A DNA stretch of 64,000 bases from contig CAZLVC010000003.1 in NCBI GenBank assembly GCA_964562885.1, forward strand, positions 10,427-74,426, given 5' to 3'. Shown piece by piece: positions 57,102 through 64,000 of the stretch. Below the pieces are notes generated by a model. That model was not told the DNA's origin, ran no database searches, and worked only from the letters and a program-made list of their open reading frames with translations. This stretch comes from an uncultured Candidatus Peribacteria bacterium. Its GTDB lineage: Bacteria > Patescibacteriota > Gracilibacteria > Peribacterales > Peribacteraceae. The position numbers and the translations under genes were made by a program. Each line of letters opens with the position of its first letter. Within the stretch, counting starts at the first letter, position 1.

Positions 57102-58844
57102 TTACCCCCCACTTGCCGAACTCGAAGAGTAGATTTTCTCTAAATCGGCATCTTCACCTTTCGCATCCTTCTCTACTTCTTGACAGAAAGGATAAAACTT
57201 TTTTTCTTTTGCTTCAAACTCCCCTCGCTTATCCTCAAAATCTTCCGAACAATTTTCCTTCCAAAAATCCGGGTCATCTGCTTCGACTGAAGGTAAACAG
57301 AAGCATTTATCAACAGCCTTTTCATCAGTGTATTTTTTTGATAAGTACGGAATGCAATAATCGTTAAATGTTCGTTTAGCGATGGTTTTGAGTGTTTTTT
57401 GACAGTGACCATCTACACAGCTTCTGCTTAAAAAATACACAAAATTAGGAAGATACTTCTTAGGCAGAAAGTCTTGTGTCATGAGTGTGTATTGCAGCAT
57501 TGCACTTCGCAATGGCTCTGTCGCTGCAGAGGTAAGCTCTAGTGTGTCACGGCTAAGGAGCTCCATACGTCCTTCAGTGCGACCTTGTGCTCCCTTCTCA
57601 AGAGCTAAGCCACGACTTACCGTATCGTATGTTCCTGCAAGGAAATATGCCTGGTCATCTTCTTCCAATGCTTCGTCGCGAGAGCGCGGTCGTTCGTACC
57701 CCATTTCTTCTTTAAGTGATGCGAATGATGGTAGTAACGTAAATACATCAGGGAATGATGTGAAAGCATTTCCCGTTGAAAGTAAAATGAGCCATGTTGG
57801 GAGCATGGAAGCATTTCCTCTCTTGTATCCCGAGTCTAAAGTGCGTAAAAATCGCTGATAGGTCTTTTCGATATCGTTCGTTGCAGGTTGTGGAAGTAAT
57901 GGATTTTGTTCGAGTGGATGAGGTGGAACTAAGCATCCTGTGACAGCAGCATGCTCCAATGAACGCGTTCGTGTGGCCTCGGGTTCTCTTCCACTAGCCG
58001 TGGGAACTGTCGTGTCCTCATTAATTTTTGCCAAACTTTCTTTTGTCAGTTTAATGGCTTCCGATATTGGTCGAGCAAATTCCTCGATGGCATTAATGAG
58101 GTTCAGCAAGGGTTTACGCTCTTTTTCAAATGATTCAGGTAGGGTAGGAAGAATGGTTTGATCACATCCGTAACTTCGTAAGGCGCTTCCCTCAGGCGCT
58201 TTGCCAATGGGGTCAATTTTTGTGGGAATATACGCAATAAAATGTGGTGAATAGTCGGTTGTGTAAATGCACGAGGGTTGGGTAGAGAGATTGATCGAGT
58301 CTGCTTCCTCGAAAGGTTGAAGTGACTGCAGAAGGCTTCCGCTGGCGCTTGGGTTAAGTCCGTTCTGCAAAAATTGTTGATAACTGATGGCGATAAATTC
58401 TAGAGCCGAGCGCAGGTCTGCTGCTAAAACTTGATCACAATTCTTAGTGGCATTGGTTAACGCGGTATACACCTGTTGAATTTTTTCCAGAAGCAAACGT
58501 CGGTCGGATTCAAAGCAAATGGTCCGCGAATAAAGTAGATCGGCTTCCTGTGTGATATTTTCAATTTCGCTAAAAATCCTACGAGATTCATTGATACTTG
58601 CTTCCACTTCGTGTTGCGTGATTTCATCCACACATGATCCATTTCCTGTTGTAGGAAGGTTCAGTGCAGTATCGACACGTGTAAGCACCGACTGCACCCA
58701 AGGCGATAATGCTGCAGCCTCTAACGGTAGAGGCACACTTAACATCAACATACCGAACAAGGGCAGGACAATAAGGTGACCTTGAATTCTAGGCATCAGA
58801 ATGACTTTTCGTAGACCCAATGATTGTAGCAGGTGAAGCATCAT
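57102..58844 (-). CDS. Orphan operon gene E: secreted Cys-containing protein (580 aa), unknown function
   Basis: The ATG at 58844 overlaps the upstream stop (TAATG). Signal-like HLIVLPLFGMLMLSVPLPLEAAA. About 15 Cys, including CVDGHC and a Cys-rich tail. No known motif. The ORF track's 58889 start would overlap gene D by 46 nt. Confidence 0.65.
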   Translation of the reverse strand: MMLHLLQSLGLRKVILMPRIQGHLIVLPLFGMLMLSVPLPLEAAALSPWVQSVLTRVDTALNLPTTGNGSCVDEITQHEVEASINESRRIFSEIENITQEADLLYSRTICFESDRRLLLEKIQQVYTALTNATKNCDQVLAADLRSALEFIAISYQQFLQNGLNPSASGSLLQSLQPFEEADSINLSTQPSCIYTTDYSPHFIAYIPTKIDPIGKAPEGSALRSYGCDQTILPTLPESFEKERKPLLNLINAIEEFARPISEAIKLTKESLAKINEDTTVPTASGREPEATRTRSLEHAAVTGCLVPPHPLEQNPLLPQPATNDIEKTYQRFLRTLDSGYKRGNASMLPTWLILLSTGNAFTSFPDVFTLLPSFASLKEEMGYERPRSRDEALEEDDQAYFLAGTYDTVSRGLALEKGAQGRTEGRMELLSRDTLELTSAATEPLRSAMLQYTLMTQDFLPKKYLPNFVYFLSRSCVDGHCQKTLKTIAKRTFNDYCIPYLSKKYTDEKAVDKCFCLPSVEADDPDFWKENCSEDFEDKRGEFEAKEKKFYPFCQEVEKDAKGEDADLEKIYSSSSASGG

Positions 58845-62416: not shown

Positions 62417-64000
62417 TTATTTTGTCGGTGCGATGAGCTGAATACTTACAGGAAGTGCAAGAGGAAGAAATAGACGCCTAAGATCATCTTTTGTCATAGG
62501 ATTGTATGGATTTTTTTGATTATCAGATTCGGGTAGTGTAGCTGCCTTGAGAGCTTTTTGAAGAGGATCAATATCAATATTCATTGTAGGAACATACCAC
62601 TGCCACGATTGTACCGACGTATGCTCTGGTGCGAGGAAGTAACAGACAATATTTTCGTGACATTTTTTTGTACCAGACTTAAATCCTTCTTTTTCCAATC
62701 GTACCACTCTTCCACCTAGATCTTCCGTCAGTTCCGGCAACCAACGTGAAAACAGACGAGCAATACGCTCGCGTAGGTCATACTCAACATGAACGATAGT
62801 GGCTTTATTCCCCTTCTCATCTTTGGTGTCGTCATGGTTGCGATTTTCAGGCCTACTATCATATTTTTCGTTCGTCGAATCTGGCGTGATGAGGATGCTA
62901 TCGATAAATCCACAGTATTTCGCTTTCATTCCATCGGCAATTTTTTGGTATTCCTGAAGAAGAGGCATGACGCCATCGACCTTGGGGAGGGTTGGAACAG
63001 TCAGTGTAGAAGGAGGCGGAAGGTCAACTTCAGGTGATTTAAAAGAATCGAATATGGTTGAACCAGGTAGTTCTGGCAAGAGTGCAAGATCCTCCGCTGC
63101 GACTGGCGCACCTCCTACAAGTGGTGGCGGAGGAAGCTCCACAGGTACGGCAATAGGCCAAAGGACCGGGAGCAGAGTACCAGTTTGCGAAAAAGTCATT
63201 GACGAAAAATCATAGCTTTGGTCCATGGGCTGATCATAGTTCAGCGATACTAGGCTTGTGGGGGTAAAAAGCATATTTCGAGAATCACCTTCTTTTGCAT
63301 CGCCCCACCAGGGGTCTAGTAGTGAATATACCGGCACCGAGTACCGTTGATTACTGCACCAACGAAGCTGACATTGATCGGCTTCCAACAAAGTTTTTTG
63401 TATTGTTCGCCACGTATTTTGTATCATTTGTCGTTCTTCAGAGCTCTTACGAGCATCAACTACAAATTCTGCATTCTTTTTATACCAATCTGCAATAAAA
63501 TTTCGTATTTTTTTCTCTGGTTCCAATAATTTTTCTAGTTGCACCGCAAGTGTGCCACGAAGGTCGCGTACTGCACGTACTCGATCGCGGTACCCACGCA
63601 AGACAGATAGCACACCGTCAGCCTTTGTGGCTTGCGAAGGTCGACCATCGGTTTTAGATGCGTCTTCGGCGATTTTCCATTGTTCCCATTCAAAAATACG
63701 TGCACTAATATCTGCTTCAGATGCGAGGGGTACAATGAGAGGAATACGAACCTCTTCTACTGGAGCAATGAATTTCCGATGAAGGGAAAGGAGAAGCGCA
63801 GTGATATCATCTAACCCTGCACGGAGCGTGACTTCTACTAACCCATCCGATTTTGCAGTAATACCACTTGTATATTGAAAAAGAGGATCATCATCTGCTA
63901 GACCCACAAAAAATCTTGAGGGCATCAGTAATTTTATCCGTGGTACAGCAATAATTTTTTGGAGCTCGCGTTCTTGCTCTTCCCAAAATTTAGCAAGTGC
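62417..64000 (-). CDS. Orphan operon gene A (partial, open at the window edge): Pro-rich protein of at least 527 aa, unknown function
   Basis: The frame stays open from 63925 to 64000 (…ALAKFWEEQERELQKIIAVPRIKLL-MPSRFF…), so the true start is probably beyond the window. Pro-rich segment VELPPPPLVGGAPVAAEDLALLPELPG...VDLPPPSTLTVPTLP. Confidence 0.65.
   Translation of the reverse strand, partial: ALAKFWEEQERELQKIIAVPRIKLLMPSRFFVGLADDDPLFQYTSGITAKSDGLVEVTLRAGLDDITALLLSLHRKFIAPVEEVRIPLIVPLASEADISARIFEWEQWKIAEDASKTDGRPSQATKADGVLSVLRGYRDRVRAVRDLRGTLAVQLEKLLEPEKKIRNFIADWYKKNAEFVVDARKSSEERQMIQNTWRTIQKTLLEADQCQLRWCSNQRYSVPVYSLLDPWWGDAKEGDSRNMLFTPTSLVSLNYDQPMDQSYDFSSMTFSQTGTLLPVLWPIAVPVELPPPPLVGGAPVAAEDLALLPELPGSTIFDSFKSPEVDLPPPSTLTVPTLPKVDGVMPLLQEYQKIADGMKAKYCGFIDSILITPDSTNEKYDSRPENRNHDDTKDEKGNKATIVHVEYDLRERIARLFSRWLPELTEDLGGRVVRLEKEGFKSGTKKCHENIVCYFLAPEHTSVQSWQWYVPTMNIDIDPLQKALKAATLPESDNQKNPYNPMTKDDLRRLFLPLALPVSIQLIAPTK

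Follow-up and report, generated by a model that had tools for sequence, protein, structure and literature searches.

Introduction

Peribacteria genomes encode one disulfide-formation protein and many exported cysteine-rich proteins, and the large Cys-rich extracellular proteins described from them by Anantharaman et al. 2016 have a mean length of 1655 amino acids and a Cys content of about 7%, differ from strain to strain, and in part form a 14-gene cluster with integrin- or pappalysin-like similarities (PMC4736985). Here, we describe a five-gene operon, ABCDE, from an uncultured Candidatus Peribacteria bacterium, encoded on the minus strand of a 64,000-nucleotide stretch of DNA that we refer to throughout as the window (contig CAZLVC010000003.1 of assembly GCA_964562885.1, positions 10,427 to 74,426 of the forward strand). 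The A-E proteins resemble the earlier set in lineage, predicted signal peptides, elevated Cys content, and a proposed role in the envelope or in attachment (PMC4736985), but they are smaller (249-1018 amino acids) and lower in Cys (1.8-3.4%), have no detectable similarities, and are encoded by a fixed operon found throughout the clade, of which our literature searches found no description. We propose, tentatively and at just under an even chance, that A-E form one Sec-exported, disulfide-stabilised complex that C tethers to the membrane on its outer face and that plays a core part in the envelope of Peregrinibacteria.

Other known systems offer partial parallels. The chlamydial outer-membrane complex (OmcA/OmcB/MOMP) is an exported Cys-rich set thought to stabilise the envelope via disulfides, and its members are outer-membrane barrels and lipoproteins. 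A-E are likewise predicted to be exported and are Cys-rich, an analogy of principle only; unlike the chlamydial proteins, they have no lipobox and no sequence or fold similarity to that set, and the Peribacteria lineage is thought to have no outer membrane. The accessory protein sets of type IV pili and type II secretion are multi-protein extracytoplasmic assemblies, as A-E may be, and a quarter of the distant relatives have a pilin gene after E; in contrast to those sets, A-E carry no prepilin motifs, and there is no ATPase, platform, peptidase, or secretin gene nearby. S-layer and surface proteins anchored by SLH domains are envelope proteins, like the predicted products of the operon, whereas A-E have neither an SLH domain nor another wall-binding module, and their only anchor is the transmembrane helix of C.

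A Five-Gene Operon Conserved across the Clade

Five long open reading frames (ORFs) span positions 57102-64000 of the window on the minus strand. Gene A (62417..64000) is represented by its C-terminal 527 codons and stop, with the frame open at base 64000, and is followed by B (61666..62415, 249 amino acids), C (60679..61662, 327 amino acids), D (58844..60682, 612 amino acids), and E (57102..58844, 580 amino acids from the ATG at 58844 or 564 from the ATG at 58796). The genes are tightly packed, with a gap of 1 nucleotide (nt) between A and B and of 3 nt between B and C, a 4-nt ATGA overlap between C and D, and a 1-nt TAATG overlap between D and E; our ORF map agrees in all of these frames and junctions with the original prediction, which had been made from the DNA letters alone. 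Junctions of this kind may imply stoichiometric co-expression. E is the last gene, its stop codon lying 25 nt from that of the convergent tsaC, and the guanine-plus-cytosine (GC) content of the operon (0.42-0.46) is like that of its flanks.

The missing part of A is found on a second contig, L001, which we located by an exact look-up of B and which is identical to the window over an overlap of 3618 nt (0 mismatches). There, full-length A has 1018 amino acids (L001:3200-6256), with its first 491 codons outside the window, and its start lies 229 nt from the divergently transcribed ssb, with murB further on. A has its own signal peptide and ssb diverges from it at this distance; A therefore opens the operon, and the gene count is exactly five. 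The original prediction had counted at least five and advised extending the sequence past 64000; the five stand, and the extension, which recovered the rest of A, leaves no room for the further upstream genes that this wording had allowed.

The start of E is less firmly placed. In the orthologues, ALSPWV, the invariant N-terminus of the mature protein, comes about 20-27 residues after the beginning of the signal peptide. Met17 (the ATG at 58796) may thus be the true start here, in which case D and E would be separated by a 47-nt spacer rather than overlapping. With regard to expression, Rfam scans of six loci and of the ssb-A spacer returned no riboswitch or other RNA leader, and we dropped such an element on this negative; scans for sigma-70 promoters and terminators gave counts at or below the shuffled expectation, with no operon-strand promoter called upstream of A.

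A scan of one genome per GTDB species yields 34 loci, all from organisms named Peribacteria, Peribacterales, Peribacteraceae, or Peregrinibacteria; the D homologues come from Peribacteria. The order A-B-C-D-E is kept in every one of these genome loci with enough sequence. Scanning metagenomes with long-form D (780-900 amino acids) adds 50 further loci of a more distant, long-D subtype, 29 of which hold all five genes in order, the remainder being cut by contig ends. No locus, whether among the 34 from genomes or the 50 from metagenomes, is missing an internal gene of the cassette. Independent gene calls place gaps or overlaps of 1-11 nt between the genes in two of the loci, L006 and L008, and the packing is also tight in the metagenome loci. 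In three unsaturated genome pairs, each of the five genes has a ratio of nonsynonymous to synonymous substitution rates (dN/dS) within 0.03-0.12. With dN/dS values of this size and orthologues in over 80 loci, the genes are far beyond chance, and the strictly kept order and purifying selection dispose of the concern, voiced with the original prediction, that the cluster might be unconserved in relatives and bear no coding signature.

Predicted Export, Membrane Anchor, and Conserved Cysteines

Export was called from hydropathy together with alignments of the N-termini of 33-34 orthologues in each family. Sec-type signal peptides, in which a basic region precedes a hydrophobic core and a cleavage site of small residues, open A, B, D, and E and are kept across orthologues; cleavage is predicted between MLISVLSRRLFIAMLPLFLGMFISSAFA and EAF in A, after VDA in B, and after STA in D. 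C has a short basic N-terminus, one transmembrane helix at about residues 22-40, and a Gly/Ser-rich linker, all kept across orthologues as well; the linker and the Cys-containing domain that follows it are predicted to be extracytoplasmic. Hydropathy analysis of A-E gives no membrane segment beyond the signal peptides and this helix, so C is the only subunit with a membrane anchor. The cleavable signal peptides on B, D, and E and the N-terminal anchor on C that had been read from single sequences are thereby upheld by the conserved N-termini, and A joins the set predicted to be exported. SecA and LspA are encoded in the same window. The predicted export and the anchor of C are the grounds for reading A-E as a putative envelope or surface system.

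Protein A, with 18 Cys at full length, consists of a Cys-rich N-terminal half, a Pro-rich linker at about residues 770-830, and a conserved C-terminal domain. Its orthologues, of 925-1274 amino acids, are found in the 34 genome loci and in metagenome loci. We took them from the loci themselves, as a word-indexed protein search with the part of A encoded at 62420-64000 of the window returned no match, not even to itself, probably because low-complexity Pro-rich words swamped the candidate list. In one Peribacteria genome (L031:4971-8029), A is split into adjacent ORFs of 471 and 546 amino acids, which may result from a frameshift or a sequencing error or may be a true division of the gene.

The remaining proteins of the window contain 8 (B), 11 (C), 14 (D), and 13 (E) Cys, values that replace the range of 9-17 given previously. 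Mature B has exactly 8 Cys in 34 of 34 Peribacteria-type and 34 of 37 distant-type orthologues (68/71). In the window, 13 of the 14 Cys of D are invariant, and 29 of 33 Peribacteria-type orthologues also have 14; E mostly has 13 across the Peribacteria-type orthologues. The invariant Cys positions number 8 in B, 13-14 in D, 13 in E, and 5 in C, and the Cys past the anchor of C are odd in number (5, 7, or 11) in every Peribacteria-type orthologue.

The distant type has mostly 5 Cys in C, mostly 14 or 16 in E, and mostly 31 or 33 in D. As the parity pattern is not kept there, with E mostly even and D mostly odd, we dropped an intermolecular disulfide deduced from the odd Cys of C and E and claim none. 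The shift in parity between subtypes could reflect free or intermolecular Cys with a partner that differs between them.

Five Families without Known Relatives

Searches of Pfam, NCBIfam, PHROGs, and PADLOC assign no family to A-E; the best E-values are 0.008-0.1, with scores far under the cut-offs and scattered over unrelated families. PDB sequences compared with hidden Markov model profiles of the five families and of long-form D give a best E-value of 0.11. Nor are the five proteins paralogues of one another, as hhalign probabilities among them reach at most 17% and the matches fall almost only in the N-terminal signal and anchor regions.

Motif and profile scans are negative throughout. None of the 67-85 orthologues in each family has the prepilin motif (G/F-T-L-x-E, the slash marking the cleavage point), and Pfam N_methyl has no match in A-E. 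A sortase signal, in which a hydrophobic segment and a basic tail come after a C-terminal LPXTG, is absent from A-E; no hydrophobic segment is present at the C-termini, and the sole LPxTG-like match, LPTTG, lies near the N-terminus of E, at residue 63, where it is not conserved. The lipobox [LVI][ASTVI][GAS]C occurs in none of the window proteins A-E, and no family has it in more than 5 of 72 orthologues. SLH domains, though detected in two other proteins of the window, have no match in A-E, and the Pfam profiles of other wall-binding modules have none either. The window A-E contain neither the CxxCH or CxxC that would mark multihaem cytochromes or thioredoxin-like oxidoreductases nor the HExxH that would mark zincin metallopeptidases; an ATPase motif is absent from the profile scans of A-E. 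Sortase, lipoprotein, SLH, haem, and thioredoxin signals are accordingly rejected for these proteins, in line with the original prediction, which had seen no ATPase, pilin, sortase, SLH, or lipobox motif and no assignable domain or function. The profile searches and the structure search with D described below likewise place no member of the operon in a characterised system, whether conjugation, pilus, or S-layer. A-E are five new protein families, and at least one of them, D, has what its predicted structure indicates is a new fold.

The Predicted Structure of D

Structure prediction covers D alone among A-E. A first model, built from 30 sequences, was poor, with a mean predicted local distance difference test score (pLDDT) of 58, and its Foldseek search was meaningless. 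It has been replaced by an AlphaFold2 model with a pLDDT of 82.2 and a predicted template modelling score (pTM) of 0.78, made from a 92-sequence alignment that draws on the 217 relatives of D returned by a profile search of 1.84 billion representative proteins. In this model, the N-terminal domain of D is helical, and the protein also contains a beta hairpin, a disulfide-rich region that is well predicted and poor in regular secondary structure, and, at its C-terminus, a helix of 65 residues (527-591). Foldseek with this confident model gives no match at E≤0.001 in PDB or BFVD, from which D appears to adopt a new fold.

D ends in a conserved tail, APL..ACPWTGP. Nearly every column conserved in both subtypes is Cys, Gly, Pro, or aromatic, and the two share no set of catalytic-type residues. 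Conservation of this kind points to a scaffold rather than an enzyme.

Genomic Setting, Co-Variation, and Mobility

The cassette is single-copy, with one per genome at a fixed chromosomal position. Its usual context is gltX, a 153-amino-acid gene of unknown function, murB, ssb (opposite strand), ABCDE, dnaE, tsaC, nrdR, and aspS. Within 10 kilobases (kb) of the operon in L006 and L008 lie murG, a peptidyl-prolyl isomerase gene, gltX, murB, ssb, dnaE, tsaC, nrdR, and aspS, and no gene for a secretion ATPase, a platform protein, or a secretin. In nearly all relatives, dnaE-tsaC-nrdR-aspS follow E on the same strand. The window departs from this order through a local rearrangement: dnaE-tsaC (52660-57077) are inverted, so that they converge with E, and the distance from the operon to nrdR (26124-26609) and aspS (26994-28757) is about 30 kb. 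The flanks differ in L066 and L081 too, and the cassette is intact in both, as it is in the window.

Across the 34 loci, pairwise distances of A-E are correlated with one another after controlling for the DnaE distance (partial r of 0.58-0.85), as compared with -0.01 to 0.33 for A-E against TsaC or MurB, a co-variation that fits interacting proteins. These observations bear on the most sceptical reading of the locus, which is that A-E are five functionally unrelated exported proteins held together only by frozen regional synteny. The flanking genes are indeed syntenic across the clade, and the five families share no sequence similarity. Start and stop codons nevertheless overlap or abut across more than 80 loci, the cassette stays intact where its flanks are rearranged, A-E co-vary far more strongly with each other than with TsaC or MurB, and all five are predicted to be exported, and we consider such a chance assembly of neighbours very unlikely.

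A remnant of a mobile element or prophage module is less credible still, to the point of being negligible, having nothing in its favour beyond the absence of annotation. A tblastn search with D finds no match in 50,697 phage or 72,556 plasmid records, the five families have no PHROG or PADLOC matches, and the cassette is like its flanks in GC, keeps a fixed position, is present once in each genome, and has neither an integrase nor repeats around it. We reject a mobile origin on the phage, plasmid, PHROG, and PADLOC negatives, and the flanking genes and these searches sustain the earlier judgement that the operon, beside the convergent dnaE and tsaC, sits among housekeeping genes and not in a mobile context.

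Variants in Distant Relatives

The long-type D proteins differ from D of the window by an insert of about 200 residues with the motif HELxHAxQxC...CCxxE (for example, P0072 residues ~487-545; loci L044-L093). This motif and weak matches to Pfam Peptidase_M76 (4 of 40 long-type D, best E-value 0.009, below threshold) recall the M76 (Atp23)-like zincins. HExxH is kept in about 70% of 40 aligned long-type D, with the full motif degenerate in about 30%, and in 63 of 124 more distant D relatives, and is absent from about half of the latter. D of the window and nearly all Peribacteria-type D lack both the insert and HExxH; one Peribacteria-type D, P0028, does carry an HELVH.

The insert raises the prospect of a secreted hydrolytic or host-attacking complex in which D is a protease or protease-derived and A, B, C, and E are its partners, acting in the processing of envelope proteins or in host attack. 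Besides the HExxH insert and the M76 matches, the faster evolution of A-E would fit host-exposed proteins. Yet the motif is confined almost entirely to the long type, where many copies are degenerate and the Pfam matches stay below threshold; D shows no catalytic-type residues conserved across its two subtypes; and universal single-copy conservation among housekeeping genes is unusual for effectors. We regard a hydrolytic complex as unlikely.

A second variant concerns the gap between E and dnaE. In 12-13 of 46 distant-type loci, a prepilin-like gene of about 150 amino acids lies there on the same strand, mostly within about 70 nt of E (L043:13791-14276, L044:14008-14493, L045:7103-7552, L064:14306-14746, and others). 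Its product has a leader of the form ..GFTLMEI.. and matches Pfam N_methyl with an E-value of 5.7e-8 in L043. No pilin gene stands beside the operon in the window or in any of 33 Peribacteria-type loci.

As Peribacteria genomes encode type IV pili (PMC4736985), this neighbour could be taken to mean that A-E are an accessory or tip module of such pili, for example a conduit through the wall or an adhesive tip, the cell depending on its pili to attach and to take up DNA. The window and the Peribacteria-type loci, however, lack the adjoining gene, A-E themselves have no prepilin motif, no PilB/C/D/M/N/O gene occurs within 10 kb in L006 or L008, and the gap between E and dnaE may simply be a permissive site for a pilin gene. 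A pilus module thus seems improbable to us, to much the same degree as a hydrolytic complex.

A Model of the Proposed A-E Complex

We return to the proposal of a single exported complex tethered by C. In this model, A, B, D, and E would leave the cytoplasm through Sec and lose their signal peptides, and C would insert into the membrane so that its N-terminus stays cytoplasmic and its C-terminal domain faces outward. The five proteins would all fold oxidatively, forming their conserved disulfides, and then assemble on the outer face of the cytoplasmic membrane with C as the tether. The contacts between subunits would probably be made by the long helices of D and by other helical subunits.

A core envelope function is probable because the cassette is single-copy, vertically inherited, and present in all of the related genomes examined. 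This role, in a cell that has no outer membrane, is probably structural or scaffolding, and probably not that of an accessory adhesin, a toxin, or a mobile function.

Several observations weigh against the proposed complex. The co-variation of A-E may partly reflect a rate shift between subtypes that exported proteins share. A-E diverge much faster than the housekeeping proteins next to them, with an identity of 22-43% in genome pairs in which DnaE is 60-73% identical, which would also fit proteins exposed to a host or to phages. The whole region from gltX-murB-ssb to dnaE-tsaC-nrdR-aspS is syntenic across the clade, so the conserved gene order says less about functional coupling here than it would in another setting. 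Finally, the HExxH insert and the pilin gene in relatives could point to an enzymatic or pilus-linked role.

Other Features of the Window

Two further predicted surface proteins, the SLH-positive ones mentioned above, are encoded in the window. One, at 14719-22041 on the minus strand, has 2440 amino acids with nine Big_13 immunoglobulin-like repeats, DUF285 repeats, and a C-terminal SLH domain. The other, at 33838-35601 on the plus strand, has 587 amino acids with two SLH domains and no other recognisable domain and is likely to be S-layer or wall-anchored. Between them, at 29609-33829, ORFs of 217, 306, 558, and 119 amino acids without a Pfam match lie around a tRNA-Leu gene (31368-31453).

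The gene dnaN (42384-43526, minus strand) coincides with the cumulative GC-skew minimum and with a dip in GC to 0.37 at about 42000-46000, and the 534-nt spacer between dnaN and glmU (43527-44060) is a candidate replication origin. If the origin does lie there, the operon is head-on to replication in this genome.

Conclusions and Perspectives

Taken at its broadest, the operon may encode an extracytoplasmic machine without precedent, built from five new families with at least one new fold, universal in Peregrinibacteria, and engaged either in defining the envelope or in the contact of these probably symbiotic cells with small genomes with partner cells, a machine of which the pilin- and protease-bearing versions in sister lineages would be elaborations; we see this as possible, with the balance still clearly tilted against it.

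Peregrinibacteria and other bacteria of the Candidate Phyla Radiation (CPR) are uncultured, and their envelopes and cell-cell interactions are largely unknown. The ABCDE cassette is a testable handle on the lineage-specific envelope biology of these organisms, and it offers both new folds for structural study and a cassette by which the group can be marked. Should the pilin-linked or zincin-bearing versions turn out to be functional, the family would further illustrate how a complex of this kind gains new activities.

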